Origin: Candidatus Sumerlaeota bacterium
GTDB lineage: Bacteria; Sumerlaeota; Sumerlaeia; SLMS01
Direction: 5' to 3'
Assembly: GCA_020848155.1 (NCBI GenBank)
Contig: JADLAR010000003.1
Location: 3,089-67,088 of the forward strand
DNA: 64,000 nucleotides
Made by a program: the position numbers and the translations under genes. The notes below the pieces were generated by a model, which did not search any database, was not told the origin of the DNA, and was given only the letters and a program-made list of their open reading frames with translations. Numbering within the stretch: the first letter of the stretch is position 1; every line of letters begins with the position of its first letter. Of this stretch, positions 3,456 to 26,622 are shown one piece after another.

Positions 3456-3465
3456 TTTCGCGCTC

Positions 3466-5424: not shown

Positions 5425-5440
5425 CGTCCGCATCCCTTCA

Positions 5441-11140: not shown

Positions 11141-11973
11141 GATGGCATCCTTTCCTGGAGCTTGCGTAGCAGCAAGTCCCCGACAATTCCCATTACCTGT
11201 GTAGCGTGCCTCGCTTCTTCCGAGGTTACACTAGGAAGCCACGGATGGCCATGCCCGGTCCCTTGCTTATTGCGCAAGGTGTTGATCGCGCATGCCGCCT
11301 CATAGAGCGCGCGTTGCAATCGCTGTTGAGGTGTGCCGGAGGTTGCCGGATTGTCGGCCGATGTCTTCAGATCCAGCGCTGCGAAGGCTTGACCAAGGAG
11401 CGTGGGGAAGTTGTGGGGCGGATTGTTGTTATTCCATACTTCCACAAGGACATGCGCCGCGATTGCCTCAAGGAGATCCTTACCTGTGCCAACCACCAAT
11501 GCGGCATCCTCAGACCCCCTCTGGGCTCTTCGCACGTAGGCGCCTAGTGCCTCAGTCAACTCCGTTCCGACGAGACTATCCAAAACGGCGGGCTGAATAT
11601 GACCATCTGGAGACAGGATGAATCCTTCTGCAGAAAGGACGTCGCGGAACGCCTGAATCTCTTCGCTTCCCACATAGTGCGCAGATTCCGGGCGGAACCC
11701 ACCGCATGACCGAACCATCGCGATCAGACGATCGACAAAGTCGCGGCCCCCTTCGAAGGAGTTCTCAATTGCCCACGAAAGGATAAGCCGAACGCGCTTC
11801 GCTTTGCCGACGGTCTGACCGCTCTGCTTCGGATCGCCGCGCTCAAGCCCTGAGGAGGTGACGCAGAACTCAATGTCCGAATGGCTTGGATCACGTCGCT
11901 CCTTTTGTGCGTCGTCAACTAATCGAGCCAATGCGTAAATGATAGCATCAGTCAGAGGTGGCTTGGTCCTCAT
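11137..11973 (-). CDS. Abi_C / HEPN-like abortive-infection-type protein (278 aa)
   Basis: C-terminal LRNKQGTGHGHPW is an R-N-x6-H motif of the HEPN/Abi_C type. ATGA overlaps at both ends. Confidence 0.5.
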   Translation of the reverse strand: MRTKPPLTDAIIYALARLVDDAQKERRDPSHSDIEFCVTSSGLERGDPKQSGQTVGKAKRVRLILSWAIENSFEGGRDFVDRLIAMVRSCGGFRPESAHYVGSEEIQAFRDVLSAEGFILSPDGHIQPAVLDSLVGTELTEALGAYVRRAQRGSEDAALVVGTGKDLLEAIAAHVLVEVWNNNNPPHNFPTLLGQAFAALDLKTSADNPATSGTPQQRLQRALYEAACAINTLRNKQGTGHGHPWLPSVTSEEARHATQVMGIVGDLLLRKLQERMPS

Positions 11974-12292: not shown

Positions 12293-13738
12293 TTACCTTT
12301 TCACAATTCGTTGGTATTCGGAGTCTGTACCTAGACGTCCCATCGCATTCGGTGGAAAGGAAATTATCTTATCCAAGCCCCGATTAATTTCTGTATTAAC
12401 TGCTTGGGTTTTTATGCGTGTAGCCAGCGCGGCGTATTCTTGACCGCACGAAGTGCTTTGCAATCGACTCAAAAATTCTCGGTCGTATGGCAATCGAGTG
12501 AAGATCCGAATGTGACGATCTTGCCACTTCGAGATCAATTCATCGTAAAAGGGGACGGCTGCATTTGACACCCCATATCCGTTTCCAATTCTGCAAAGCG
12601 TTAAAACCTTCACGTACTTTGCTTCGACGCTGTGGGGGACGGCGCCATTGGCTGGAATTAGGCGAGACAATGCTCTTGCTGGAGCAACTTCGCGAGAGAA
12701 GTTACTCCAGCCTTGGTGGGCCGAATAAAGGGAATCCACAGCGGTACCGATTTCGACGGCGAGGGTCTCTGCTGGCAGAAAGCTAAGGCCGTCAACAAGG
12801 TCCAGAAACTCCCGAATCAGTTTTGCGCGTGCCACATCTCCGTTAGCGGCGAGGGTCGCTTGCTTCAGCCCTGCTTCATACTTGGCATCATCTGGTGCTG
12901 CCCCCCAAAGCCCAGCTGCAATCAACTTTATGTTATTCCGTACGTGTGCATCCAAACTCGGGTCTCCGTACATTCCGGCGATCGCCCTCGACAACGAAAT
13001 CAGCAATTCATCCGGAAGGAGCTTTATCGCTTCAATTATCGCTGGAGTATCACTTGAACTGAAGGTGTTTTCTCGGATGTTCTTCAACAACCGCCGGACC
13101 TCAAGTGCGGGACCGACCGGGTCTTTCGCCAACACCTCCTTTACGCAGGTCTCCAGCCAACTCACCAATTGAAGTCCAGAGAGATCGTTTTGATTAGGGT
13201 GGGCCGCGCTCGCATGGTTTCGCATGGAGCGAATATAGTCCAGATGGCGGTAACCAATGTCCGTGATGATACCTGCTTCCATGGACCCTTTGATCAGCTC
13301 CCAGTCCTCGATCTTCGCCAAATCCTCAGGAGTTCGTAGTTTCGACCTTCGCGCTGGATCTGTGACAACCGTGCTGAAGAAGTAGTCGAGATCAAACCGC
13401 GTGACCTTGTCGCGTATACTCCGAACCGTTTCATCCCACAAATAGTTCAGAGCAGCATCGAAGAGACCGATGCCACATGCAGCGACGAACTTAGACAGAT
13501 ACATGGCACTCTGCTTCTGTTCGTCGTTCAGAAGAGCAACGACGTCAGGAAGGTTGTTGATCACCTTGCGGCGTTCCGATTGTTCCACGAGAACTGCTTC
13601 TGAGGGCACACCTAGATAATCCAGGTAAGTGGTAAGCCCCGAAGCAAACTGTGCCAAGGATTCAGAGACTGCATCTGGATTCGAAGGGATTATATCAGCC
13701 ATCGCTTGTTGTCGCTCCGTGAGAGGATATTCATGCAA
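12293..13738 (-). CDS. Hypothetical protein (481 aa) with HEPN-like R-x6-H motif
   Basis: DYIRSMRNHASAAHPN resembles the motif in the 278-aa Abi_C-like ORF. No other domain recognised. Tight coupling to neighbours. Confidence 0.4.
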   Translation of the reverse strand: MHEYPLTERQQAMADIIPSNPDAVSESLAQFASGLTTYLDYLGVPSEAVLVEQSERRKVINNLPDVVALLNDEQKQSAMYLSKFVAACGIGLFDAALNYLWDETVRSIRDKVTRFDLDYFFSTVVTDPARRSKLRTPEDLAKIEDWELIKGSMEAGIITDIGYRHLDYIRSMRNHASAAHPNQNDLSGLQLVSWLETCVKEVLAKDPVGPALEVRRLLKNIRENTFSSSDTPAIIEAIKLLPDELLISLSRAIAGMYGDPSLDAHVRNNIKLIAAGLWGAAPDDAKYEAGLKQATLAANGDVARAKLIREFLDLVDGLSFLPAETLAVEIGTAVDSLYSAHQGWSNFSREVAPARALSRLIPANGAVPHSVEAKYVKVLTLCRIGNGYGVSNAAVPFYDELISKWQDRHIRIFTRLPYDREFLSRLQSTSCGQEYAALATRIKTQAVNTEINRGLDKIISFPPNAMGRLGTDSEYQRIVKR

Positions 13739-14996
13739 AATACTCCTGATCTAAAGGCAGGAACCCAAACACGAGCCCGCCGGTAGTATAGAAAAGGTGG
13801 CCCTGAAGCGTGAAATGCGTGTATCCGCCACGCTCTGTTCTTCTGAAGGAGGGGTTTACGTTTTTCTTGAACTCCTTCTGAAAGCGACCATTTGGAACAA
13901 CGCATCGAACTTTCTGAAAAACTCTGCGACGTTTCATGATGAAGGAGGCTATCGGATCGAAATCTTGCTTGGCGAGCATGGGCAGTAAGCCACCATTAAT
14001 ACCAATGAACAAACACGCCTCTTTACTTAGGGCGAAAACCTGCCCTCCGGCACTATCGTCGTCTGTATGCGACTTATTTGCGAACCACGCCAGCCCACCC
14101 GATGCTCCGCGGATGTCGAAACCCTCTCCATCCCCTCTCAATAATCCAACGCTATCCAACTGAAAAGGGTCTGAAAGTTCCTGGAGCGCAGAGACACGAG
14201 TTTGCAGCGATGCTGAAAAAGGGGATCGAGGGCTGATGAAAGAAATCAGGTCTCTCAGGTTCTCAAGTCGAGCTAAGAGCCTAAAGTCTTCGGGGTTCGT
14301 ATCTTCGGTGAGCGGTGGGTCGAGGAGCCAGCATTTCGGCCTTGTGCCCTTGCGTCCGTCTAGCGCGACGATTGTTCCATACCTAACACCATTAGCGGGG
14401 GCAGGGTTAGCTTTCTTTTTTTTGCGGATATCAGAAGCGTGAGAATATACACTCCCACGGTCCTTCTTCCTATTATCAGCGCACGACGTACCTTTATTTT
14501 CAACTTCAATGATAAATTCGCCCGAACTAGCTGCAAGAGAGTAGCTATAGTCTAGGGTCTTCGTCTTTCGTTCTTCTATTGGGCTCCAGTCGACCGATGT
14601 AAGCCGGTGAATTTTTGAAATCAGGGCCAGACCTATTGCTTCACCGAGTCTTTCGGAGGTTCCTCTATCTGTCCCTCTGGGAGCGATGACTCGAAGAGCT
14701 CCTTCTTCAATTTCAATTAGCCCGTCCCAGTCGAAGAGCGTATGTTTTGCCTTTTTCTCTAGTATTTCAGCGAAGCTGAGGTAACCCGGAGCGCCTTGCT
14801 TCCGCTTGAGAAACTGTGAATAGACAAGAACTTCATCCGTTGGAACCTCAATCTGTCCCGGGATCTGAATCTTGTCTAAGTACTCTTTAGCAGCAGAGAC
14901 CTTCAGGGCGTCTTGATCTGCCCTATTGTAGTAATCAACGTATACTTTGAGGGTGTCAGGTAGGGTTCCAGTAAATAGAGCTTCGGCTAGAGCCAT
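13731..14996 (-). CDS. Hypothetical protein (421 aa), no recognisable domain
   Basis: Long ORF in operon context, AT-rich. Only a weak D..(E)xK-like FIIEVENKG motif. An 8-nt overlap with the next gene, and 1 nt after the helicase stop. Confidence 0.4.
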   Translation of the reverse strand: MALAEALFTGTLPDTLKVYVDYYNRADQDALKVSAAKEYLDKIQIPGQIEVPTDEVLVYSQFLKRKQGAPGYLSFAEILEKKAKHTLFDWDGLIEIEEGALRVIAPRGTDRGTSERLGEAIGLALISKIHRLTSVDWSPIEERKTKTLDYSYSLAASSGEFIIEVENKGTSCADNRKKDRGSVYSHASDIRKKKKANPAPANGVRYGTIVALDGRKGTRPKCWLLDPPLTEDTNPEDFRLLARLENLRDLISFISPRSPFSASLQTRVSALQELSDPFQLDSVGLLRGDGEGFDIRGASGGLAWFANKSHTDDDSAGGQVFALSKEACLFIGINGGLLPMLAKQDFDPIASFIMKRRRVFQKVRCVVPNGRFQKEFKKNVNPSFRRTERGGYTHFTLQGHLFYTTGGLVFGFLPLDQEYFA

Positions 14997-14997
14997 A

Positions 14998-17900
14998 TCA
15001 GCTTTCCCCCGCTTCCAATACTTGGTTCTGCCCGATCCTCACCCCGCCCGTCTCCACCATAGCGTTAATGGTCCTCACCACGTTCTGCGTCTTCTTGAAC
15101 GGCCGGACTAGCAGCTTAGCAAACGGGTCCTGAACGCGCACGAGCTGGGGCGTCGGTGTGCCGCAGTGATAGACAACGTAGAGCCAGTATTTGTCGCGAA
15201 GGTTGCATGCCTTGGCCCATTCGTTGTCTGTGATTTCGATCTCGCTGACACCAATGCACCCCTTCACCTCGATACAACGTTGGTTATTGCCGGGACGGGT
15301 ACTGAGCATGTCGAAGCCGGGATGATCCGGCATGCTGGCGGCGCGGGCGAGCGCCCGAGTGTGGACGTATCTGACGGTGGCGCCTTCAGCTTCCTCGTGG
15401 GCTTTTGCCAGGTCCATGGCGATTTGCTCGACATTGGCATCACGCCATTCCAGTTGGGCAGGATCGGTGGCGGGGATGACAAGGGCATGGGCAAAGAAAT
15501 TGACCTGACCGGGGACGAGCAATTCGGGTTCGCGGCGGAGCATCGTCAAGGCGCGGGTGCGACGCGTATCCAGATCGCGCTGCTGGTTCTTAATGTGGGT
15601 TAGTTCGGCGGCGGCGCCCTTGCTTCCAGTCCGGGACTTTTGCGACATCTTGGTGCGCGCCGCGGCCAACTCGGCCTCCTGGAAATCGAATCCGCGCTTT
15701 ACGAAGGACTCCCTTTCGGGAAGAGAGGCCACGCGACGTTCGCGGCATTCGACTGCGAGAGAGCGGCAAATGCGTTCAGCAAGATAGGCCTGCGCATGGT
15801 CGATGAGTTTGGATGCTTCGACGGCGAGCCGCTGCGCAAGCGGCGGCAGGCCTTGTCCGCCCCGGAGGAGAAGGAGGTGCTCGACAGGACATATCCTTAT
15901 ATCGCCGGATTCCGACTGACGGAGCCCAACGAGCCGGCACTCGACAGTTTCTTCACGGGAGAGTTCTGAGAATTCCGGATCGCCTTTTCGAATCACGGAC
16001 AGACGTGCGAGGTGAAAGAGATAGGGGGCCTCCGCGGTGGGATCGACGAAGATTGCCCCCTTGAGGGCTTCTTTGCCGAGCTTCTGGCGAACAAGCTCGC
16101 GAAACCGTTCGAACACCGGTTCGCCGGGATGGACCCAGATGCAGGACTGACGATCACCGGGACGATAGATCGAGAGCTTCTGGTTTTGTGGGTGGGGATA
16201 ACTTTCGATCGCTGAGAGCATCGGGTCGAGGGCCCCGTCTTTGGCGGGGACGAAATTAAAGAGAGTGCCGGGATCTCCGTCGATCTCAATGCCGACCATG
16301 GGCGCCGTCGAGGTAACGAATTTCCTGACATAACCAGGCATGAGACGAAAGTAGGTCTCTTGTTCGATGCTTTCGCGGAGACGGGGCAGCTCTCGTTTCA
16401 CATCACCGCCATCGCCGTATAGAACCTTCTCCTGATCCTGAATCGCTTTTACCTGCTCCTTGGAGAGGCGTCCGTCCAGTTCATGCGCGATAATTTCTGG
16501 GTCATCACCGGCTGCAATGCGCTGCATATATACCTTGATAGACACATCGCTGAAAATGCGGCCGATGCTGTCGAAGACCTTGTCGGACTTGAGCTGTTTG
16601 CGGATTTTTTCTAGTTTGTCGAGCAAGGTCTTGAGCACCCGGCCTTCCCGCGTCGCCGGTGCGACGAGGTTGAGGATGACAACGGGATCGTGCTGCTGAC
16701 CGTAACGATGGATGCGACCCATGCGTTGTTCGAGACGCGCTGGATTCCAAGGGACGTCGTAATTGATCATGATCCAGCAGAACTGAAGATTTACGCCCTC
16801 AGCGGCGGCGTCAGTGCAGATCATGAACCGCGCGCCGCCATCGACGGCTGGCAGGCGGAAACGATCGATCTGCTCTTGCCGCTCGGTGAAGTGCATGCCG
16901 CCGTGGATCTGAGCGATCTGGTCCGTATATCCCATTCCGCTTAAGCGGCGCACGAGGAACTCCAGGGTGTCTTTGTGCTCTGTAAAGACGATCAGCTTTT
17001 CCTGCGCGAACTGATCGTCCTGAAGTACGGTTCGGAGTTTGTCGTATTTTGACTCTGTGCCAGACTCGTAGACTCTGGAAGCGATCTCTCGAAGGGCCAC
17101 AACCTGCTGGCGCTCGGCCACCAAATCGCCGAGTGAAGATGCGATGATGCCCTGCAGCAGCCTGTCCTCAGCCAGTTCGTTTTCTTCCGTTCCTTCTTCA
17201 CAGCTTTCCTCGTCAGCCGATTTTGATTCGAGTACGTCGTCGTCATCCTTGATGCTTCTCTGATAAGCAAGCAACTGCTCGAATGTGATTCGACCGGACT
17301 GTATATCGTCGATAATATTATCAAGTTTGACGATGCGCCGCTCAAAGGAACAGAGAAGCGCAAAAGTGGAACTGGCCAGTCTACGCTGAAAGACTGACAT
17401 GGCAAGCTGGGCCGCGGATTGATTCAGCACCCTGGCTTTGTTGTAGACGTGACGGAGATACTCAGTGGTCTGATCATAGAGATCCTGTTCGCTGCCAGCG
17501 CCGCTGCCCAGACTGTATCCGAGTGTATTGCAGACACGCGTCGGGTAGAGCGGCTGACCATCCAGGCGAACCATTTCTTCCTTGGTGCGTCGGATGAAAT
17601 AGGTTCGACGATTCTCGGCGGGAAACTGGTCAAAGGAATCGGGAGTGGAGAGGACCTCCGGCTCAAGAAGGCGCCAAAGTGCGTAGTACGGGTAATCCTT
17701 GCCCATGTGAGGCGTCGCAGTGAGGAGCAAGAGATGGTGTGACTTCCACGGAAGCTTCCAGCCGCGGTCACCTGTATCTACCCCCGCGATGGCTTCTGCT
17801 AACTTGTAACGGTCGGTTTTGGTGACTCGGAAATCGGATCCCCGGCTAGAGGAAAGCTTGTGCGCTTCGTCGAAAACGATCAGGTCATATGGTTCAACGT

Positions 17901-18606
17901 CATCTGCTGCGAGTCGCGAGAACATCTTTTCACCGGCAAGGGTATCGACGCTCACGATTGCCTGATCACTTGTCCTTCCCACGAAGGGGTTCCCGGACTT
18001 CGCATCCTTCCCACTGATGATCTGGAAGGATAGGCTGAAGAGAAGTTGGAGCTCGCTCCTCCAGTTTCCAACGAGTCCAGCAGGTGGAACGATCAAGACG
18101 CGACGGAGCAAACGACGTGAGAGCATTTCTCGTATATACAACCCCGTCATGATCGTCTTCCCGGCCCCGGCATCGTCAGCCAGGAGAAACCGTAACCGGG
18201 ACTGCTTGAGCATGTGATCATAGACCGCGATTCTCTGATGAGGAAGCGGATCGATACTGGCGATCTCTGTAGCGAACGCTGGATTTGCCAAGTGCCCGAA
18301 TGATAGCCGCTCCCCCTCAACAAGAGAACGGACAAGCTCTGGGCGTGACGTAAAATCCGCAAGTGGAGCAACCGCGCCGTAGGGAGGAGGTTCGGGTTCG
18401 GATACAACACCAGCACCGTCATCTTCAGCCAGTTCCAAGAGACGATTCCAAGAGAGCTGCGAGGGCCGAGATTTCCCATTCTCCCACCTGTTAACGGTGG
18501 GAAATGATACACCAAGTAGCCCTGCTAAATGGACCTGGGTCAGACTCAGTCGAGCCCGCAGCTCCTTGATTTCATTTGGGTAATTTTCTGTTGGCCTGCG
18601 ATCCAT
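14998..18606 (-). CDS. XRE-type HTH + SNF2-family helicase + DUF3883-like C-terminal domain (1202 aa)
   Basis: HTH LSLTQVHLAGLLGVSFPTVNRWENGKS. Walker A LADDAGAGKT, DExH LIVFDEAHKL, LLLTATP. Helicase-C motif VI LEQRMGRIHRYGQ. C-terminal IEVKGCIGVSEIEITDNEWAKA..YWLYVV is a DUF3883 (PD-D/ExK-like) pattern. Confidence 0.8.
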   Translation of the reverse strand: MDRRPTENYPNEIKELRARLSLTQVHLAGLLGVSFPTVNRWENGKSRPSQLSWNRLLELAEDDGAGVVSEPEPPPYGAVAPLADFTSRPELVRSLVEGERLSFGHLANPAFATEIASIDPLPHQRIAVYDHMLKQSRLRFLLADDAGAGKTIMTGLYIREMLSRRLLRRVLIVPPAGLVGNWRSELQLLFSLSFQIISGKDAKSGNPFVGRTSDQAIVSVDTLAGEKMFSRLAADDVEPYDLIVFDEAHKLSSSRGSDFRVTKTDRYKLAEAIAGVDTGDRGWKLPWKSHHLLLLTATPHMGKDYPYYALWRLLEPEVLSTPDSFDQFPAENRRTYFIRRTKEEMVRLDGQPLYPTRVCNTLGYSLGSGAGSEQDLYDQTTEYLRHVYNKARVLNQSAAQLAMSVFQRRLASSTFALLCSFERRIVKLDNIIDDIQSGRITFEQLLAYQRSIKDDDDVLESKSADEESCEEGTEENELAEDRLLQGIIASSLGDLVAERQQVVALREIASRVYESGTESKYDKLRTVLQDDQFAQEKLIVFTEHKDTLEFLVRRLSGMGYTDQIAQIHGGMHFTERQEQIDRFRLPAVDGGARFMICTDAAAEGVNLQFCWIMINYDVPWNPARLEQRMGRIHRYGQQHDPVVILNLVAPATREGRVLKTLLDKLEKIRKQLKSDKVFDSIGRIFSDVSIKVYMQRIAAGDDPEIIAHELDGRLSKEQVKAIQDQEKVLYGDGGDVKRELPRLRESIEQETYFRLMPGYVRKFVTSTAPMVGIEIDGDPGTLFNFVPAKDGALDPMLSAIESYPHPQNQKLSIYRPGDRQSCIWVHPGEPVFERFRELVRQKLGKEALKGAIFVDPTAEAPYLFHLARLSVIRKGDPEFSELSREETVECRLVGLRQSESGDIRICPVEHLLLLRGGQGLPPLAQRLAVEASKLIDHAQAYLAERICRSLAVECRERRVASLPERESFVKRGFDFQEAELAAARTKMSQKSRTGSKGAAAELTHIKNQQRDLDTRRTRALTMLRREPELLVPGQVNFFAHALVIPATDPAQLEWRDANVEQIAMDLAKAHEEAEGATVRYVHTRALARAASMPDHPGFDMLSTRPGNNQRCIEVKGCIGVSEIEITDNEWAKACNLRDKYWLYVVYHCGTPTPQLVRVQDPFAKLLVRPFKKTQNVVRTINAMVETGGVRIGQNQVLEAGES

Positions 18607-18647
18607 AGCCAGTGCGTTGCTCCCGGCGTTTCAGTCTTGCGAGAGTG

Positions 18648-18676
18648 GATATAGCGTTTGTTATACCATGCGTCAA
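18648..18676 (-). promoter_or_regulatory. Candidate sigma70-type promoter for the defence operon
   Basis: Minus strand TTGACG, 17-nt spacer, TATATC, ~38 nt upstream of the helicase ATG. By eye only. Confidence 0.25.
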
Positions 18677-18976
18677 GTCCCCACGCGATTAGCCGCGGCA
18701 AACGTCCAATCCCCTTATTCGGATGCCGGTTCAGCATCGCCTTCCGCAGGAATGTGCACCGAGTTCATTTTGGAGCCTCCTTGGAGTCCAGCCAAGACAC
18801 GATAGCCTGAGGCCGATCACCTGCTCCGCCCTAAATCGTGCCCCACATATGCCCCACGGAGGGCGGGAAATGGGGTGAAAACGCGGGAAATCAGCCAGCG
18901 AAGTAAAGACGTAAGATGAGCATTATGAGCACTATAGGGAAATGGCGGGAAGGCCCTGAGCCGATTGCCAAGGTGG

Positions 18977-19009
18977 AGGTCGCGAGTTCGAGCCTCGTGT
19001 CCCGCTCCA
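18977..19009 (+). other. tRNA 3'-end fragment (T-arm + acceptor 3' strand + CCA), probable integration-site (att) remnant
   Basis: GCGAG-TTCGAGC-CTCGT forms a 5-bp T-stem with a canonical TPsiC-like loop. It is followed by GTCCCGC-T-CCA. Upstream sequence cannot form D or anticodon arms, so this is not a complete tRNA. Confidence 0.35.
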
Positions 19010-19219
19010 TTCAAGTTTAGCGGAATCAGGATTCTGGCCCCGGCTTCGGTCGGGGCCTTCTTCTTGTTCGCCGCTTCGGTCAACTACGGGTCAACAAAAC
19101 AACCGGCTCTCTCCTACTCTTTCGCGAGGGTGTTCGGCGGATACGAAGAAACCCCCGGAGGTTGTTCCGGGGGTGAACGTGGTTCGGGGGTGACTGAAGG
19201 GGCCAACGTGGTTGGCGGG

Positions 19220-19735
19220 TCATTCTGTCGTGATGAACGGCCCCCACGCGGCAAGGTCTTGTTGGAAGAGGCGGGGATTCACTTGTCCCGCTGGAACGGG
19301 GTCCACAGGAGGGAGCCCGTCCGCCGCACGCCAACGGTTCCGCGCTTCAGCCCGCTCGATGAAGTCCCGCCGATAGGCGATGCTTGCCTGAAGGGCGCCT
19401 TTGGCGATGTAGGAAAGCGGGGAAGTGCCGTCCTTGGCGACATACAAAACCCGCTCACAAATATGCCTGCCGACGTGTTCCCGCATCCACACCGCCAGCA
19501 AGAAGCAACGCGCGAGGTCCGACGCCAGGTCTTCATCGCCGCGCGTTGGAGGTTTCAGATCGTTGTACGCCACAAGCAGACCGCAAATGGCTTCGCTCAT
19601 TGAAACCGCTCCCGATTGCAGACTGGCCACCAGCGCCAGGGCGAACGAGCGTTCATGCGCCTCATTCGCCGTCTTCCTGAGAAGGAAGTAGCGGAGCCGC
19701 TCAATTTGGGTTTCCATCATCGGGTTGCGTTCCAT
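19220..19735 (-). CDS. Hypothetical protein (~171 aa from MERNPMMETQ; track ORF extends to 19906)
   Basis: ORF only, no domain recognised. Start choice uncertain. Confidence 0.3.
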   Translation of the reverse strand: MERNPMMETQIERLRYFLLRKTANEAHERSFALALVASLQSGAVSMSEAICGLLVAYNDLKPPTRGDEDLASDLARCFLLAVWMREHVGRHICERVLYVAKDGTSPLSYIAKGALQASIAYRRDFIERAEARNRWRAADGLPPVDPVPAGQVNPRLFQQDLAAWGPFITTE

Positions 19736-19794
19736 CGGTTTGCATCCTTTCGGGCCTCTGTCGGCCCCAGATTTTTTTTTCTTTGGCGGTTCAC

Positions 19795-20187
19795 TCACTT
19801 TTCCGTGTGCGAGACGAGGCCGGCCCTCTCGGGCGGGAGCGTTTCCAGCCCCCCACCCCCCGGTGTCGGGTCCATCAGAACGAACCGTGCGTGCCATTGC
19901 TTCCACCGCCGGGCTTCGTTGTGCATTTTATGATGCATGATTGACCGAAGGTAAGAGTAAGCGTTTCGCGCGGGATTGACCCGGTGCATGTATAGCCAGG
20001 CGTGAAGGACTGCTTCCTGGATCATGTCGGCCTTGGTGTCTTCGTCGAAATGCAGATGCAGGCCCCTACTCATGAATTCGGCTTCGGCCATCGGGAAGAG
20101 AAACTCGCGGGCCAAGCGGTTGCGTTCTTCCTGTGATCCAGCCTGGGCGGCTGCCAGGCATTCGGCAAGTGCGGCGGCGTCGATCAT
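19795..20187 (-). CDS. Hypothetical protein with sigma-70 region-2-like segment (~130 aa)
   Basis: IQEAVLHAWLYMHRVNPARNAYSYLRSIMHHKMHNEARR resembles sigma70_r2. No region 4. Track ORF 19795..20241. Confidence 0.3.
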   Translation of the reverse strand: MIDAAALAECLAAAQAGSQEERNRLAREFLFPMAEAEFMSRGLHLHFDEDTKADMIQEAVLHAWLYMHRVNPARNAYSYLRSIMHHKMHNEARRWKQWHARFVLMDPTPGGGGLETLPPERAGLVSHTEK

Positions 20188-20405
20188 GCGAGGAACTCCC
20201 GAATGCGATTCAGCGCCGCGAGGATGCGCCTCTGTCCCCAATGAAGCTGCCGCCCCACCACCGCGAGATTCACGGCGAAGCGGCCCTGCTTCACGTTGCG
20301 GTGGGCCGCCTCTTCCGCAAGGAGTAGATCAATCACCGCGCGTTCATCGTCGCCAAGCTGGCGCGCCTTCTCCAGCGCATCCCGCGCGGCAATTGGGGCG
20401 CTCAT
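20184..20405 (-). CDS. Small hypothetical protein (73 aa), possibly ribbon-helix-helix-like
   Basis: MSAPIAARDALEKARQLGDDERAVIDLLLAEE has a beta-alpha pattern. It is the C-terminal part of track ORF 20184..20906, whose upstream part is Arg-rich and likely spurious. Confidence 0.2.
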   Translation of the reverse strand: MSAPIAARDALEKARQLGDDERAVIDLLLAEEAAHRNVKQGRFAVNLAVVGRQLHWGQRRILAALNRIREFLA

Positions 20406-20489
20406 GCGCGAACCTCTTCGGGCGTCACTCCGCCAGGCGAGGTCTGGGCGTGGGACTTCTTCCACGACCGGCTCGCCGACGGCCGCGCG

Positions 20490-21020
20490 GTGAAGTGGCG
20501 GGCTTGCATCGACGAGTTTACGCGCCAGTGCCTGCTGCTGGAACCGCGCCGCTCGATCAAGGCGAAGGACGCGGCGGCGATGCTGGCGCGGGTGATCGCG
20601 GAGCGCGGCGCTCCCAAGCACCTGCGGAGCGACAACGGCCCAGAGTTCATCGCCCAAGCGCTGCGCGGATTCCTCAAGGAGTCGAACATCGGGACGCTGT
20701 ACATCGAACCGGGCTCTCCGTGGCAGAACGGCTTTGCGGAGAGCTTCAACGCGCGCGTGAAGGACGAACTGATCGGCGTGGAGCTCTTCACGTCGATGAA
20801 GGAGGCCGAGGTGGTGGGGGGCGACTGGCGCGAGGCGTACAACAATCGCCGGCCGCACTCGGCGCTCGGCTACTTGACTCCGGCGGCGTTTGCTGCCACA
20901 CAACACATGCCCAACACGAGCGGAAGGGAGGCCGGCCCGGCCACCCGCAAGGCCCCTCCTTTTCGTTCAAATGTTGGGGTGGATTCGAACCGGGAAACTC
21001 TCATAGCGAGTGGCACATAA
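20490..21020 (+). mobile_element. IS3-family transposase (OrfB DDE/rve core) C-terminal fragment; degraded
   Basis: HLRSDNGPEFIAQALRGFLKE..GSPWQNGFAESFNARVKDEL..YNNRRPHSALGYLTPAAF is a classic IS3 OrfB C-terminus. No N-terminal HTH/OrfA or upstream DDE residues remain in frame. Confidence 0.7.
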
Positions 21021-21092
21021 AATGGGGGCAGGTCACAAGCGCTGGTTGGCTTCTGTGGCTCTACTGCCAATTCTGATATAGGAGGAGGTGGT

Positions 21093-23174
21093 GTGATGGC
21101 GTACAATCAGAAGCGTGCTTTAGAGTTGCTGCGCCTTGGAAGTGGGCAGCCAGAGGCGCAATTCCGCGATCAACAGGAGGATGCGATTCGGCATGTGGTC
21201 GAAGGCAAGGGGCGCCTTCTCGTTGTGCAGAAGACGGGCTGGGGGAAGAGCTTCGTTTACTTCATCGCTACCAAGCTGCTTCGTGAAGGTGGCAGCGGAC
21301 CCGCGCTGCTTGTTTCTCCCTTGCTTGCGCTCATGCGCAACCAGATCGCCGCCGCGGAACGCATGGGGGTCCGCGCCAGCAAGATCACTTCCGACGATCT
21401 GGACGATTGGAGTTCGGTCGAAGCCTCAATCGCCCGGGACGAAGTGGACATCCTGTTGATTTCACCAGAACGCTTCGCCAACGAGCATTTCAAGACTGAT
21501 GTTTTGGCGAGGATTGCCGGGAAGGTGTCCCTGCTAGTGATCGACGAGGCTCATTGTATTTCCGATTGGGGCCACGACTTTCGCCCCCATTATCGCCTGC
21601 TTGAGCGAATCGTTCGGTCCTTGCCGCCGAATCTTCGCACCTTGGCGACGACTGCCACCGCCAACAACCGGGTTATGGAGGACCTTAAGACCGTTCTGGG
21701 TCCCAACATCGACGTGTCCCGGGGTGATCTGAACCGACCATCTCTCTTGCTTCAGACCATCCGATTGAAGAGCCAAGCCGAGCGCCTCGCGTGGCTGGCG
21801 GAGCAACTTCCCAGTATGCCAGGCAATGGGATCATCTACACGCTAACTGTGCGCGATGCCGAACAGGTTGCCGAGTGGCTGAAGTCCCGCGGGTTGGCTG
21901 TCGTGGCGTACACGGGAGAGTCCGGTGACGCACGCCCTGAACTCGAGCAGAGTTTGCTCGATAACAAGATAAGGGCGCTGGTGGCTACGACCGCCCTTGG
22001 CATGGGCTACGACAAGCCCGACTTGGCATTTGTCATCCACTATCAGATGCCGGGGTCTGTTGTGGCCTACTACCAGCAGGTAGGGCGTGCGGGACGTGCA
22101 CTGGCGGCAGCCTACGGTGTTCTCCTGAGTGGTGACGAAGAAACAGACATCAACGACTACTTCATCGAGAGTGCTTTCCCCGCGCGCGCTGAGGTGGAGG
22201 CGATCCTGAAAGCTCTTGAGGCATCATCAGCAGGATTATCGGTTCCGGAATTGCTTGCTTGCGTGAACGTCAGCAAGGGCCGGATGGAGAAGGCCATCAC
22301 GCTGTTGTCGCTGGAGTCTCCGGCGCCAATCGCTAAGCGCGGGAGCAAGTGGCAACTGACCGCGGCCGCGTTGAGCAAGGCGTTCTGGGAGCGAGCGGAT
22401 CGCTTGACGACTCTTCGCCGTGCTGAGCAGCAGCAGATGCGAGAGTATGTAAAGTTGAAGAGCGGCCACATGGAGTACCTCATCCGCGCACTCGACGGCG
22501 AGCCCGGTCCGGTGACATCGCCGAAAATCCCCAGCCTGCCATCGACTGTGAAAAGTGCTCTGGTAACGGAGGCGATCAGATTTCTTCGGCGAGCCAGCCT
22601 GCCATTCGAGCCTCGGAAGAAGTGGCCAGATGCTGGCGGCCTCCCCAAGTACAGCCTAAAGGGCAGAATTGCAGAGCAGCATCAGTCGGAGTCTGGCAGA
22701 GCGCTCTGCTATTGGGGCGACGCGGGCTGGGGAGCCCAGGTGAAGAAGGGCAAGTACCAGGATGGACGGTTCAGCGACGAGTTGGTCAACGCTTGCGCAG
22801 AGATGGTCCGCGAGTGGGGACCTACTCCAAGGCCTGAGTGGGTTACCTTCATACCGTCGATTCGGCACCCCGATCTTGTGCCCGACTTTGCCGCTCGGCT
22901 GGCGAAGGCCCTTGGTCTGCCATTCCGCCAGTCGCTCGAAAAGTCCGATGGCCGCCTTCCGCAGAAAGACATGGCAAACAGTACCCAGCAAGCTCGAAAC
23001 ATTGATGGTTCGCTGGAGCTACGTGACGCAGAAGTCTTGTCAGGGCCTGTTTTGCTCGTCGACGACATGGTGGACTCCCGCTGGACGTTGACGGTCGCTG
23101 CCTGGCTTCTGAGAAGCAAAGGCACCGGTGAGGTCTTTCCACTGGTACTCGCGAAGACCGGGAAAGGAGACTAG
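21093..23174 (+). CDS. RecQ-family DNA helicase fused to C-terminal phosphoribosyltransferase (PRTase)-like domain (693 aa)
   Basis: Walker [30 protein letters not shown] is the RecQ DEAH box. Helicase-C [11 protein letters not shown]-terminal [16 protein letters not shown] is a PRPP-binding-type PRTase motif. Confidence 0.75.
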
Positions 23175-23175
23175 C

Positions 23176-24474
23176 ATGCGAATGTCACCGAACACTCAGG
23201 CGATCCTGCTTCTCGCTGCTCCCTTGCTGGTCGGAAAAAGCGCGGGGAGCGAGACGATCTTGAGCCCTCGCGAGTACAAGCTGCTTGCGCGGCGATTGAG
23301 AGAACTAGGGCGCGAACCTGCGGACCTCCTCGGATCAGATGCAGCAAATCTGATGGAGGGATTGCAGCCTGTCGTGGCCGGGGATCGTCTCCGGCGCCTG
23401 CTCGACCGCGGATTCCAACTGAGCCAGGCCATGGAGCGCTGGGCATCGCGGGCGATCTGGGTGCTGAGTCGGGCCGACGAGGGCTACCCGAAACGGCTCA
23501 AGGCAAGATGTAAGGAAGATGCGCCCGCCGTCCTCTACGGCTGCGGCGATGACGAACTGCTGGACGCCGGCGGACTGGCCATTGTCGGGTCGCGGGATGT
23601 CGATGAGGAGAATCTCCGATTCACGCGCCAGATTGCTGGTCTCGCTGCCGAGGCTGGACGCGCCATAGTTTCTGGCGGTGCCCGAGGCGTTGATCAGGCC
23701 GCAATGGGTGCGGCGCTACAGGCGGGAGGGAGAGTGATCGGAGTCTTGGCGGATAGTCTCGAGCGCGCGGCGCTAAACCGCGAGAATCGAGAATACTTGA
23801 TGGACGGGCGGTTGCGACTCATCTCTCCCTTCGACCCATTCGCTGGGTTCAATGTCGGCAATGCAATGCAACGCAACAAGTACATCTATGCCCTTGCTGA
23901 TGCTGCTCTCGTTGTGAAGTCAGACTTTCAGAAGGGAGGCACATGGCAGGGCGCCCAGGAACAGCTTGAAAAGTACCGCTTCGTGCCGGTCTACGTTGGA
24001 GGTGATCCGAGCAAGGGCCTCCAAGCTCTCAGGCGCATGGGGGGCCGACCATGGCCCAATCCGGTGGACTCCGCAGGGCTCGACCTTTTGTTTTCGGATC
24101 AAGTTGCCCCCATCGAGAGCCTCGCCAGCGGCGAAGAGCTACCGCTCTTCGTCAGCGAAGGTGCAAGCACATCCCCGCACGAGAAGGAGTCGAAGGAAGA
24201 GCCTCTGAATGGCACCGGACCGGTCGCGGAGACGGTTCGGGTAGACAACGCCGAAGCACTGTTCTCGAAGGTTCGGGAGATTCTTCAGAGAATCGACCAC
24301 CCGATGACGGATTTGGAGATCGCCGAAGACCTTGGCGTCTCGCTCTTGCAGGTACGGAAGTGGCTGAAGCGCATGACCGCTGAAGGATCACTGCAAAAGA
24401 CGAAGCGCCCGGTTCGCTATCTTGGAGCGCAGACCGAGTCGGATTTGTTTACGAGCAGCGAAGGCTCTCCCTAA
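23176..24474 (+). CDS. DprA/Smf-like (SLOG superfamily) protein with C-terminal winged-helix
   Basis: [84 protein letters not shown] 6 nt upstream of the ATG at 23176, which is 1 nt after the upstream stop. Track ORF starts at 23128. Confidence 0.75.
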
Positions 24475-24544
24475 TGGGAACCTCTGACCGTACCCGTCTC
24501 ACGAGCCCCATGGTATTTGATCTTGCAGTTGTTTGTGGCGGGTG

Positions 24545-24772
24545 TCAGTTGGCTTGGGGTTCGGCGCTGGGTGTTGCCGAAGTGGTCCACCTGTCGGGCA
24601 GCAGTTCCTCGAGCCTGTTGACCGGGTGGTCGCCGATCCTGCGCAGGATGTCGGAGATGTACTCGAACGTGTTGTGGCCCGATCGCCTGCAGGAATCGAT
24701 GAGCGTGAAGAAGGTCGCTGCGGCCTCGCCTCCGCGGGGGCTGCCGGCGAAGAGCCAGTTCTTCCTTCCCAC
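24545..24772 (-). mobile_element. IS66-family transposase C-terminal fragment
   Basis: GRKNWLFAGSPRGGEAAATFFTLIDSCRRSGHNTFEYISDILRRI..LEELLPDRW matches the IS66 TnpC C-terminus. The N-terminal ~450 aa are missing. Confidence 0.65.
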
Positions 24773-25158
24773 GGCGACGGGTACTACTGAGTTTTCGTTT
24801 GAAACGGGATGAAATTGCCGGGGTTGGCGCCCCCTCTATCTCTCTGTCTCCGCTGCGGGTTATTTCGGTTGAAACAGGAGGCCGTCTGGAACACAAGAGA
24901 CTCATGCTTTGTAGGGGTATTATGGATTTATGGCTCCAAATATCCTAGAAAAGACGAGTGAATGTTCTTAAGTCGTTTGAATCCAGTTTTCGATGGGGTG
25001 ACAACCCTCGCATTCAGGCAGAGTGATGCAGTCCATCCGGGGACGGGATGGGTGTTTGCCAAGGCGGTTGGGCTTGGTCTGCGAACAGCGCAGCCTGCAT
25101 ACGGCATTCCCTCCGGCGGGTCGATCACTGACGTCGCCATCGCCAGGTTGTTCCGTGC

Positions 25159-26622
25159 ATGGATTGGAGAAGGACGATGCTGAAAGCGGGCGGTTTTCCC
25201 CAGATCATTCAGGGGGGGATGGGTGTTGCCGTTTCGGGATGGCGCCTTGCCAACGCTGTGGCGCGCCGCGGCCAGTTGGGCGTGGTGTCTGGCACGGGGC
25301 TCGATCAAGTGCTCGCGCGTCGGCTCCAATTGGGTGATTCCGATGGGGCGTTGCGCCGGGCTATTGCGGCATTCCCGTGTCGCGCAACGGCAGAGGCGGC
25401 GCTTTCGCGATATTTCATTCCAGGCGGGAAGGATCCCTGCAAGGGCTTCCTGACGCCCCCGATGTTCAATGTCAATCCATCGCGCGCGCATCTGCGATTT
25501 GCCGCGCTCTCGGCCTTCGTTGAAGTGTGGCTCGCGAAGGAAGGGCACGCTGGTCCGGTCGGGATCAACCTGCTCGAAAAGATAGCGCTTCCCAACCCTG
25601 CGATGATCTGCGGCGCCATGATCGCGGGTGTCGATTTTGTCCTCATGGGAGCAGGCATTCCATGGCAGATCCCCGGGCTGCTTGATGCCGTGTCGCGCAA
25701 TGAATCCTTCGACTTCACAGTGACGGTTGAAGGGGATCCGGCGGGTGTTGACGTTCACTTCGACGTTGCCGCCCTGTTTCCTGATCTGTCTCCGCTCAAG
25801 CGCCCCGCATTCCTCGCCATTGTCTCGTCCGCGACCTTGGCGCAGGCGCTGCTCAAGAGGGCGAACGGAAGGATTGACGGCTTTGTGGTCGAGTCCCCTG
25901 TCGCTGGCGGACACAATGCCCCGCCACGCGGGGCGGTCAGGCTCAATGAACGGGGTGAACCCATTTACGGTGAGCGCGATCAGGTGGATCCGACGCGCAT
26001 GGTGGCCCTTGGCCTTCCCTTCTGGCTGGCGGGGGGCGAAGGCACGCACATCTCGCTCGCACGAGCGAGGAGCCTTGGTGCGCATGGTGTCCAAGTGGGG
26101 ACCGCATTTGCGTTTTGTCAGGAGTCGGGCCTCGATCCGGTGTTGCGCGCCAACGTCCTTGGGCGGGTTGCCGAAGGACGCGTCGATGTGTTCACTGATC
26201 CCGAAGCTTCGCCGACTGGTTTCCCCTTCAAGGTCGTTCGCTACGAGGGCACCTTGTCGGAGGAGGACATCTACGCCGGGCGTGAGCGCGTGTGCGATGC
26301 CGGCTATCTCCGCCGTGTCTTCCGCTATCCCGACGGACGCATCGGCTATCGTTGTCCGGGCGAGCCTGAGGCGGACTATGTCGCCAAAGGGGGCGACATA
26401 GAGGACACGCAAGGATGCAAGTGCCTGTGCAACGCCCTTCTTGCGGACATCGGCCTTGGCCAGATTCGGGACGGGGTTGCCGAGCTCCCGCTACTCACCG
26501 CCGGCGATGCTCTTAAAGAGTTACCCGCACTTGTTGGCGAGGCTCTCCTGAGGTATACGGCAAGCGACGTCATCGATGCTCTTTTCAGGGAATCCATCGC
26601 GGCGTCGGAAGATGCAATATGA
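25159..26622 (+). CDS. Nitronate monooxygenase / 2-nitropropane dioxygenase-like (NMO family) FMN oxidoreductase
   Basis: PQIIQGGMGVAVSGWRLANAVARRGQLGVVSG N-terminal motif, TIM-barrel length. Stop overlaps the next start (ATGA). Confidence 0.65.
   Translation: MDWRRTMLKAGGFPQIIQGGMGVAVSGWRLANAVARRGQLGVVSGTGLDQVLARRLQLGDSDGALRRAIAAFPCRATAEAALSRYFIPGGKDPCKGFLTPPMFNVNPSRAHLRFAALSAFVEVWLAKEGHAGPVGINLLEKIALPNPAMICGAMIAGVDFVLMGAGIPWQIPGLLDAVSRNESFDFTVTVEGDPAGVDVHFDVAALFPDLSPLKRPAFLAIVSSATLAQALLKRANGRIDGFVVESPVAGGHNAPPRGAVRLNERGEPIYGERDQVDPTRMVALGLPFWLAGGEGTHISLARARSLGAHGVQVGTAFAFCQESGLDPVLRANVLGRVAEGRVDVFTDPEASPTGFPFKVVRYEGTLSEEDIYAGRERVCDAGYLRRVFRYPDGRIGYRCPGEPEADYVAKGGDIEDTQGCKCLCNALLADIGLGQIRDGVAELPLLTAGDALKELPALVGEALLRYTASDVIDALFRESIAASEDAI

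Follow-up and report, generated by a model that had tools for sequence, protein, structure and literature searches.

A probable PsyrTA (RqlHI) toxin–antitoxin gene pair at the edge of a defence island in Candidatus Sumerlaeota

Introduction

In a 64 000-nucleotide stretch of DNA from a Candidatus Sumerlaeota bacterium (the window, numbered from its first nucleotide), a gene for a RecQ-like helicase is followed directly by a gene for a DprA-like protein. The question raised by this locus is whether the two genes belong to repair and DNA uptake or form a toxin–antitoxin system and, in the latter case, to which family they belong. Very probably the two genes are an intact PsyrTA (= RqlHI) pair, a toxin–antitoxin and anti-phage module, located on the edge of a defence island. 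The pair is an ordinary copy, and the fusion found in its toxin is the standard design of the family and not a new one. Beyond annotation the significance is slight: the toxin is relabelled, the pair is named as PsyrTA/RqlHI and Candidatus Sumerlaeota is added to the PsyrTA host range.

Gene pair and family assignment

The toxin gene psyrT (rqlH) was located on the forward strand at 21096–23174 and encodes a 692-residue protein in which a RecQ-like helicase is joined to a C-terminal PRTase. The ATG at 21096 is a likelier start than the alternative GTG at 21093 (693 residues) because a ribosome-binding site read from the sequence, AGGAGGAGG (21080–21088, forward strand), lies 7 nt ahead of it; the PADLOC PsyrT model also begins at residue 2 of the GTG form. 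The stop codon of psyrT (TAG, 23172–23174) is separated by 1 nt from the ATG at 23176 of the antitoxin gene psyrA (rqlI; 23176–24474, forward strand), which encodes a DprA-like (SLOG/Rossmann) protein of 432 residues and whose ribosome-binding site, AAAGGAG (23163–23169, forward strand), was read within the 3' end of psyrT. The arrangement given in the preliminary description, a RecQ helicase with a C-terminal PRTase followed after a 1-nt gap and an internal ribosome-binding site by a DprA-like gene, was thus recovered in full and position by position.

Both proteins were matched over essentially their whole length, each in one unbroken stretch, by the PADLOC family models. PsyrT gave E = 3.2e-273 and 906 bits against PsyrT (PDLC03928), with residues 2–693 of the GTG form covering positions 1–688 of 689, and PsyrA gave E = 1.8e-132 and 440 bits against PsyrA (PDLC03927), with residues 1–415 covering positions 1–394 of 398. 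E-values of this order (1e-273 and 1e-132) exclude chance for either match. Both open reading frames are intact, being full length against the models and free of frameshifts or internal stops. The PsyrT protein is 100% identical to an NCBI protein from Candidatus Sumerlaeota, which is labelled only 'RecQ family ATP-dependent DNA helicase'.

The original assignment to PsyrTA/ShosTA-like modules can accordingly be sharpened to PsyrTA proper by the profile search that had been proposed with it. Membership of ShosTA, or a new hybrid in which a ShosT-like PRTase is fused to a RecQ helicase, might be argued from the combination of a PRTase toxin with a DprA-like antitoxin, which is common to both families, and from weak matches of PsyrA to the ShosA models (90.5 bits) and to the sequence of the ShosA crystal structure (PDB entry 9vzo, E = 5.6e-5). 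The ShosA score stands against 440 bits for the PsyrA model, however, and no ShosT model is found among the best 25 of the 42 PADLOC matches. The fusion had been presented as a special combination of RecQ and PRTase in one polypeptide; it is instead the defining architecture of RqlH/PsyrT (PMC3378886, PMC4670107), described for Mycobacterium smegmatis RqlH in 2012 (PMC3378886) and for Escherichia coli RqlH in 2015 (PMC4670107), and at ∼70% identity it occurs in at least 582 species. A ShosTA member or hybrid is therefore extremely improbable.

Domain structure of the two proteins

The RecQ-type SF2 helicase core of PsyrT extends over 21159–22130 on the forward strand (residues 22–345; Pfam DEAD and Helicase_C). 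Its Walker A motif GWGKS (nt 21237–21251, residues 48–52) contains K51, aligned with K49 of RqlH, and its DEAH box (nt 21543–21554, residues 150–153) contains D150, aligned with RqlH D148; the helicase motif quoted in the preliminary description was found at residues 150–166. All 82 loci retain GWGKS, and 81 of them retain DEAH. The protein scores 224.6 bits against the NCBIfam family recQ_fam (cut-off 219.8), and the core matches RecQ in the PDB (entry 4q47) with E = 3.6e-54.

Sequence comparison detected the C-terminal PRTase weakly: Pfam Pribosyltran was matched with E = 0.0025, under the cut-off, and when the C-terminal 213 residues were run against the PDB with phmmer, PRTases were reached at E ≃ 0.2 only. 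An AlphaFold model of the C-terminus (mean pLDDT 73, pTM 0.78) was therefore compared with the PDB using Foldseek, which returned phosphoribosyltransferases only. All 15 matches with E ≤ 0.001 were PurF (best E = 7e-5), followed by APRT, H. pylori ComF (7p0h) and HGPRT. The model supports a PRTase fold for this part of the protein, and a ComF-like domain is predicted at 22602–23171 on the forward strand (approximately residues 503–692). The putative PRPP-binding loop (nt 23052–23087, residues 653–664) is near-invariant across the 82 loci and adds support for the PRTase assignment, and its D657, which aligns with RqlH D663, is conserved; D663 is needed for toxicity (PMC4670107). All three RqlH residues that mutagenesis showed to matter, the Walker A lysine, the DEAH aspartate and the PRPP-loop aspartate, are thus kept here. 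In RqlH, replacement of the lysine or of the DEAH aspartate by alanine alters the toxicity without abolishing it.

PsyrA has a DprA domain at nt 23443–24027 (residues 90–284, forward strand; Pfam DNA_processg_A, E = 5e-37), scores above the cut-off for SLOG cluster4 (E = 3.6e-7) and carries a C-terminal winged helix–turn–helix at nt 24280–24414 (residues 369–413, forward strand; Pfam FaeA/HTH_23). In the PDB its match to DprA is 3uqz, with E = 1.3e-10.

Relatives and the cysteine-less clade

Relatives of PsyrT were found in at least 582 species. A PsyrA homologue lies directly downstream on the same strand in all 79 of the fetched relatives with room for one, while the flanking families of the 81 relatives' loci are not conserved, the commonest being a WYL regulator (17/81) and the type I restriction–modification protein HsdM (13/81). 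Their contexts are variable, unrelated to one another and often rich in defence genes, and none of the relatives' flanking families is common to the window.

These data bear on the reading of the pair as a housekeeping RecQ with a competence DprA or, as the preliminary description had allowed, as a decayed ComF/DprA DNA-uptake module. PsyrT does pass the broad recQ_fam cut-off and PsyrA matches DprA models, the PRTase model is similar to H. pylori ComF as well, and possible links to transformation have been discussed by Russell and Mulvey (PMC4670107). The housekeeping equivalogs, however, are far from reached: PsyrT scores 256.7 against a cut-off of 640.2 for TIGR01389 and 190 against 1015 for PRK11057, and PsyrA scores 87.1 against 191.15 for TIGR00732 and 65.4 against 495 for PRK10736. 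The RecQ match is limited to the ATPase core (profile positions 12–347 of 591) and leaves the C-terminal part uncovered, and for the first open reading frame Pfam gives nothing beyond DEAD, Helicase_C and ResIII; the PsyrT and PsyrA models, in contrast, fit end to end. Because the equivalog scores lie below the cut-offs (257 against 640 for recQ, 87 against 191 for dprA), both frames are intact and the partner gene adjoins the toxin gene in all 79 relatives, whose contexts are unrelated, variable and often defence-rich, the uptake remnant is unsupported. The housekeeping or uptake reading is largely refuted, and we give it almost no weight.

PsyrT contains only four cysteines (residues 154, 389, 538 and 567), none of them in residues 440–500. 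The RqlH clade as Ordonez et al. (2012) defined it biochemically has a tetracysteine zinc-binding domain that follows the helicase core and precedes the ComF-like domain. This domain is absent from the window protein, and the four-cysteine motif is missing from 81 of the 82 loci, being kept only by the F11-numbered E. coli RqlH homologue. By its sequence, the window PsyrT is therefore a member of a cysteine-less sub-clade and not of the zinc-bearing RqlH type. This clade is ∼70% identical across Proteobacteria, Planctomycetota, Nitrospirota, Acidobacteriota, Chloroflexota, Sumerlaeota and other phyla. Application of RqlH helicase biochemistry to it is an extrapolation, since the zinc module is missing. 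It is conceivable, although unlikely, that the cysteine-less proteins work differently from zinc-bearing RqlH, for example with the helicase module as a DNA sensor or switch and not as an unwinding motor, and that they owe their spread to one successful defence cassette passed very recently between phyla. The absence of the zinc module in most relatives could help biochemists who work on PsyrT.

Genomic context and expression signals

Defence genes are densely grouped in this part of the Candidatus Sumerlaeota genome, and the pair stands on an edge of the island they form. The defence genes of the window comprise SIR2 with a short pAgo, DarT, a macro-methylase, an Abi_C protein and an HmaA-like helicase immediately upstream.

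The flanking IS3 and IS66 fragments named in the preliminary description are real transposase remnants (NCBIfam transpos_IS3 and transpos_IS66). The IS3-family remnant (20328–21020, forward strand) lies 76 nt upstream of the pair and comprises the C-terminal DDE/rve part of a transposase, the N-terminal part being missing; its frame is open from a stop near 20325, it matches positions 212–368 of 369 in transpos_IS3 with E = 5e-43 (147.7 bits against a cut-off of 160) and it also matches Pfam rve_3 and rve. The IS66-family remnant (24545–24772, reverse strand) lies 70 nt downstream and retains only the last ∼46 residues (Pfam DDE_Tnp_IS66_C, E = 1.8e-11; transpos_IS66 positions 342–387 of 387). 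No upstream continuation of it was seen in one translated reverse-strand frame, which is not the remnant's own frame; past 24772 the sole long minus-strand open reading frame (24928–26412) mostly overlaps a plus-strand gene at 25159–26622 with a match to Pfam NMO.

A composite transposon around the pair was considered and rejected, IS3 and IS66 being different families without shared terminal repeats. Between 18600 and 26000 only short repeats at chance level were found, and the pair is not bracketed by terminal repeats, whether inverted or direct. The G+C content of the pair (0.59–0.61, against 0.577 for the window) gives no compositional sign of recent acquisition, and scanning the entire window for tRNA genes and Rfam families returned nothing and hence neither an integration site nor an RNA partner. 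The IS3 remnant stands where 17 of the 81 relatives have a WYL regulator.

The pair could be a silent or decaying relic, stranded between insertion-sequence remnants and non-functional after loss of its promoter or regulator. The truncated fragments on either side are in keeping with this, as are a scan of 20400–25200 that gave no σ70-like promoter and no terminator after psyrA, and a tblastn search of the window that gave no remnant of a WYL regulator (best E = 0.79). The scan used the σ70 consensus only, however, which may not suit Sumerlaeota. Both open reading frames are full length against the models without a frameshift or stop, the tested catalytic residues are all conserved and both ribosome-binding sites are intact; moreover, a toxin gene would be unlikely to persist unopposed unless its antitoxin were expressed. 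Decay to a relic is thus improbable, and an intact PsyrTA module is the preferred reading.

Proposed mode of action

As a PsyrTA module, the pair combines toxin-first order with tight coupling, the antitoxin gene following after a 1-nt gap with its ribosome-binding site inside the toxin gene. Like M. smegmatis RqlH, for which the activity was shown, PsyrT would act as a 3'–5' single-stranded DNA translocase and helicase, and its C-terminal PRTase would, as in homologues, bind PRPP. Unchecked PsyrT would be expected from its homologues to cause genotoxic stress, in which the SOS response is induced and cells filament and lose viability. As was shown for E. coli RqlHI, PsyrA would bind the PRTase domain and restrain it jointly with the helicase domain; the C-terminal winged helix–turn–helix of PsyrA may autoregulate the operon. 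Later steps can be sketched speculatively after ShosTA. Phage infection may remove or titrate the antitoxin, either because host protein synthesis is shut off or by means of phage single-stranded DNA; the freed PRTase activity, possibly coupled to a pyrophosphatase activity, may then perturb purine/PRPP metabolism or modify DNA, and replication of cell and phage may be blocked, with abortive infection or growth arrest as the outcome.

Alternatively, the pair might serve mainly in DNA transactions, either in repair or in a nucleotide or DNA modification that is resolved by the DprA-like partner, with toxicity as a side effect of imbalance. Russell and Mulvey proposed that the PRTase alters a DNA nucleotide and that RqlI and the helicase resolve the change; they also noted that RqlI is missing from many bacteria that have RqlH, and argued that the pair is not always a toxin–antitoxin element (PMC4670107). 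With the PsyrTA of E. coli NILS69, no protection against the phages tried was detected in native and K-12 hosts, and only a growth defect was seen (bioRxiv 10.1101/2024.12.20.629700), and the helicase core resembles the DpdF helicases of a DNA-modification system. Against this, PsyrTA is among the phage-resistance systems of Millman et al., who list it as phage-defensive and in whose work the psyrA deletion was not transformable (bioRxiv 10.1101/2022.05.11.491447), and defence genes and insertion sequences surround the pair in the window and in relatives. The DpdF equivalog NF041063 is scored at 164.3 against a cut-off of 550, the PADLOC DpdF matches to the toxin cover either the helicase core only or the PRTase tail only, and no other dpd family was seen among the neighbours except for weak sub-threshold DpdE matches of an SNF2 helicase (14998–18606). 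A primary role in DNA transactions is distinctly unlikely, and a toxin–antitoxin module of the PsyrTA family is retained as the explanation of the locus.

Comparison with known systems

PsyrTA is reportedly an anti-phage toxin–antitoxin system that goes back to Sberro in 2013, with P. syringae as the original source; the other validated members of PsyrT are those of the Bacillus donor of Millman et al., E. coli F11 and M. smegmatis. The window pair is like it in its end-to-end model matches, toxin-to-antitoxin order, near-zero spacing, domains and defence-island setting, and shows no architectural difference from it; the host phylum, Candidatus Sumerlaeota, is not among the tested donors.

The closest annotated relative found is the pair of E. 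coli F2_81 (locus L001), with a toxin 70% and an antitoxin 50% identical to those of the window. Its toxin is also 692 residues long and has the same cysteine-less linker, whereas its antitoxin, at 463 residues against 432 in the window, contains an acidic linker of greater length. The F2_81 pair adjoins an ABC-three-component system, an IS3 transposase and other conflict-system genes and is annotated generically only, as a RecQ-family helicase and DprA. We know of no experimental test of this pair.

As reference for the E. coli F11 type of RqlH–RqlI we took locus L002 of strain 2017-02-2CC, where the pair is flanked by gntU and yhgN and the residue numbering agrees with K49, D148 and D663 of F11 RqlH (PMC4670107). 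Both E. coli pairs also match the PADLOC PsyrT and PsyrA models. The F11-type pair is collinear with that of the window over the full length (toxin 49%, antitoxin 38% identical); K49, D148 and D663 correspond to K51, D150 and D657, and the PRPP loop VDD(I/M)VDS and the operon order are common to both. The F11-type toxin, however, has a C-x18-C-x2-C-x2-C motif between helicase and PRTase where the window protein has none, its genes overlap by ∼90 nt as annotated instead of being separated by 1 nt, and the N-terminus of the window PsyrA is ∼30 residues shorter. By description, M. smegmatis RqlH (MSMEG_5935; PMC3378886) is like the window protein in its RecQ-like ATPase core with motifs I and II, its RqlH-specific linker, the lack of an HRDC domain and its ComF-like PRTase C-terminus. 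It differs in possessing a tetracysteine zinc-binding domain (residues 435–499) and in having no RqlI partner (PMC4670107), whereas the window toxin is accompanied by PsyrA.

With ShosTA (PMC11961720, PMC12961424) the pair shares its logic, in which a PRTase toxin that binds PRPP is opposed by a DprA-like, single-stranded DNA-binding antitoxin; ShosTA likewise produces a phenotype of DNA damage and filamentation. Neither study reports a helicase domain for ShosT, whereas the window toxin has one. ShosA neutralizes its toxin without binding it, as a type IV antitoxin acting via RecA and DNA (PMC11961720, PMC12961424); RqlI, in contrast, co-precipitates with RqlH through the PRTase domain (PMC4670107).

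Gene structure and family assignment

The psyrT gene (ORF1, toxin; + strand) runs from GTG 21093 or ATG 21096 to a TAG stop codon at 23172–23174. ATG 21096 is the more probable start because the ribosome-binding site AGGAGGAGG (21080–21088, + strand) sits 7 nt before it. After a gap of 1 base, psyrA (ORF2, DprA-like antitoxin; + strand, 432 aa) extends from ATG 23176 to 24474, with its ribosome-binding site AAAGGAG (23163–23169, + strand) within the 3' end of psyrT. The two genes form an intact, translationally close toxin–antitoxin operon. The ORFs, their coordinates, the 1-nt gap and the internal ribosome-binding site of the preliminary description are all present in the sequence, and its 17-residue helicase motif was located at residues 150–166 of ORF1.

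ORF1 was matched by the PADLOC PsyrT model in a single stretch (E = 3.2e-273, 906 bits; residues 2–693 against positions 1–688 of 689) and ORF2 likewise by the PsyrA model (E = 1.8e-132; residues 1–415 against positions 1–394 of 398). The ShosA model gave only 90 bits for ORF2, and ShosT was absent from the best 25 of the 42 PADLOC matches of ORF1. The profile searches proposed earlier thus match both proteins over their whole length and narrow the initial PsyrTA/ShosTA-like reading; they support assignment of the locus to PsyrTA proper (also called RqlHI), as a further copy of an already known system. Pfam identified DEAD and Helicase_C domains in ORF1, and DNA_processg_A (E = 5e-37), SLOG cluster4 (above the cut-off) and a C-terminal winged HTH in ORF2.

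Identity as housekeeping RecQ and DprA was also considered. Among the NCBIfam models, ORF1 passed the cut-off for the broad recQ_fam subfamily only; it scored 257 against a cut-off of 640 for the RecQ equivalog, with the ATPase core alone aligned, and ORF2 scored 87 against a cut-off of 191 for the DprA equivalog. This identity was rejected since both scores lie well under their cut-offs and the RecQ match is confined to the ATPase core.

PRTase domain of PsyrT

At the sequence level the C-terminus of PsyrT was matched weakly by Pfam Pribosyltran (E = 0.0025) and by phosphoribosyltransferases (PRTases) in the PDB (E ∼ 0.2), and the last 213 residues were therefore modelled with 37 aligned homologues. 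The resulting structure had a mean pLDDT of 73 (81–97 in the best-modelled blocks) and a pTM of 0.78. In a Foldseek search against the PDB, all 15 matches with E ≤ 0.001 were the PRTase enzyme PurF, followed by adenine PRTase, Helicobacter pylori ComF and HGPRT. Together with a PRPP loop at residues 653–664 that is nearly invariant across 82 loci, these model-based matches favour the C-terminal PRTase domain that had been proposed for ORF1.

PDLC02866 and PDLC02869, two PADLOC models that bear the name DpdF, matched PsyrT exclusively in this PRTase tail (residues 487–692, window 22554–23171). PDLC02869 also matched the tail of the E. coli RqlH homologue with F11 numbering (7.8e-54). Both models seem to be derived from RqlH-like C-termini and could lead to mis-annotation.

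Genomic surroundings

The flanking IS3 and IS66 fragments reported previously were confirmed by model matches as real transposase remnants. The IS3 remnant (20328–21020, + strand; C-terminal 157 model positions) lies between an upstream defence island and psyrT, and the IS66 remnant (24545–24772, − strand; last 46 model positions) just after psyrA. A repeat search found no repeats common to both, and scans of the window found no tRNA or Rfam element. The G+C content of psyrTA is unremarkable, and ordinary metabolic genes lie beyond psyrA and the IS66 remnant.

All of the upstream defence genes are on the − strand. A SIR2 protein (2352–3515; PADLOC Aga_SIR2, 1e-120) adjoins a short class II prokaryotic Argonaute (3466–5481; 5.2e-194), and the two look like a SPARSA-type pAgo defence pair. 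A giant protein of 1460 aa (5441–9823; DarG, 2.6e-64, residues 1–163; HmaB, 6.6e-116) consists of an N-terminal macro domain followed by DUF1156 and an HmaB-like adenine methylase; it adjoins DarT (9827–11140; Pfam DarT, 2.6e-42), the C-terminus of which matches an HD domain weakly. Fusion of the macro-domain antidote of a DarT toxin with a defence methylase seems unusual. Between DarT and an SNF2 helicase the cluster encodes an Abi_C-domain protein (11137–11973) and proteins of 481 aa (12293–13738) and 421 aa (13731–14996), the latter two without Pfam, PADLOC or NCBIfam matches. In the helicase (14998–18606, 1202 aa; best PADLOC match HmaA, 2.1e-153), HTH_3 is the N-terminal domain and NOV_C (DUF3883) the C-terminal one. 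It resembles DrmD and BrxH as well, and together with the methylase fusion it may make up an Hma-like cluster. The interval from there to the IS3 remnant (18607–20327) contains just ORFs that overlap one another and match no family, plus a weak fragment of sigma-70 region 2 (19795–20241, − strand, below cut-offs); it is possibly decayed sequence.

Relatives and their neighbourhoods

An NCBI protein from a Candidatus Sumerlaeota bacterium has the same sequence as the window PsyrT (100% identity). At least 8000 relatives were found in the database, the best being 72–77% identical and from many phyla, and a scan in which a single genome stood for each species placed relatives in at least 582 species. 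In 79 of 80 fetched loci the toxin gene is followed immediately, on the same strand, by one for a PsyrA homologue (48–65% identical); in the remaining one the sequence stops 46 bp past the toxin gene. The flanking families are not conserved across 81 loci: the commonest, a WYL-domain regulator immediately upstream, occurs in 17 and the type I R-M gene HsdM in 13, and none of those frequent in relatives is shared with the window. Conserved context in relatives, which the preliminary description had held to count against its reading, was thus not found; a constant pair with variable flanks is the pattern of a mobile defence cassette.

The WYL-domain protein (∼329 aa; for example 5010–5996 in locus L014, and also in L077, L033, L036 and L005) stops a few nt before psyrT, mostly in Proteobacteria, and probably regulates the psyrTA operon as a BrxR/CapW-like protein. 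In a few further loci tblastn gave short matches to the C-terminal end of this protein. No trace of it was found in the window, where the IS3 remnant occupies that place.

Proposed mechanism

By extension from homologues, PsyrT would act as a 3'–5' ssDNA translocase and helicase with a genotoxic PRTase domain, which the DprA-like PsyrA would bind and so neutralise the toxin. More speculatively, by analogy with ShosTA (PMC11961720, PMC12961424), phage shut-off of host protein synthesis or phage ssDNA might free the toxin, which might then disturb PRPP/purine metabolism or modify DNA. Three caveats apply: a sigma-70 scan of 20400–25200 found no psyrTA promoter, although the consensus may not be that of Sumerlaeota; one PsyrTA from E. 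coli did not protect its native host against the phages tried (bioRxiv 10.1101/2024.12.20.629700); and RqlH occurs without RqlI in many genomes (Russell and Mulvey, PMC4670107).

Comparison with E. coli and M. smegmatis systems

Millman et al. treat PsyrTA and RqlHI as one system and count it among those that are phage-defensive (bioRxiv 10.1101/2022.05.11.491447). The union of RecQ and PRTase features in one polypeptide had been regarded as special; a helicase–PRTase fusion already defines RqlH (PMC3378886, PMC4670107), and the window fusion is therefore canonical. In E. coli RqlH the PRTase domain is needed for toxicity, and RqlI co-precipitates with RqlH only when it is present (PMC4670107).

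A distant DNA search matched 1656 of 5426 complete E. coli genomes and revealed two kinds of RecQ-family/DprA pair, both also matched by the PADLOC PsyrT and PsyrA models. The two types occupy different chromosomal sites: the E. coli F2_81 pair (4923–8392 of its locus; cysteine-less type) has an ABC-three-component system and an IS3 element as neighbours, near yfgI, and the E. coli 2017-02-2CC pair (4887–8185; zinc type) lies between gntU and yhgN. Toxin and antitoxin of the window are 70 and 50% identical to the former and 49 and 38% to the latter, the toxin numbering of which fits K49, D148 and D663 of E. coli F11 RqlH. These residues align with K51, D150 and D657 of the window PsyrT, in which the ATPase and PRPP-binding residues are conserved. 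Mutation of the residues equivalent to K49 and D148 in M. smegmatis RqlH abolished ATPase activity (PMC3378886), and mutation of D663 in E. coli RqlH abolished toxicity (PMC4670107).

In M. smegmatis RqlH the helicase and ComF-like domains are separated by a tetracysteine zinc-binding domain (PMC3378886). Four cysteines are retained at the matching place in the F11-numbered E. coli homologue, whereas the window PsyrT (residues 441–500, window 22416–22595) has none there, so what is said of its helicase biochemistry is carried over from a sub-type that differs somewhat. The PADLOC PsyrT model nevertheless fits the window protein end to end. The cysteines are absent in 81 of 82 loci examined, the F2_81 type included, and their absence is a trait of a very large PsyrT sub-clade rather than of this locus. 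This cysteine-less clade is ∼70% identical across many phyla, unusually uniform for hosts so distant.
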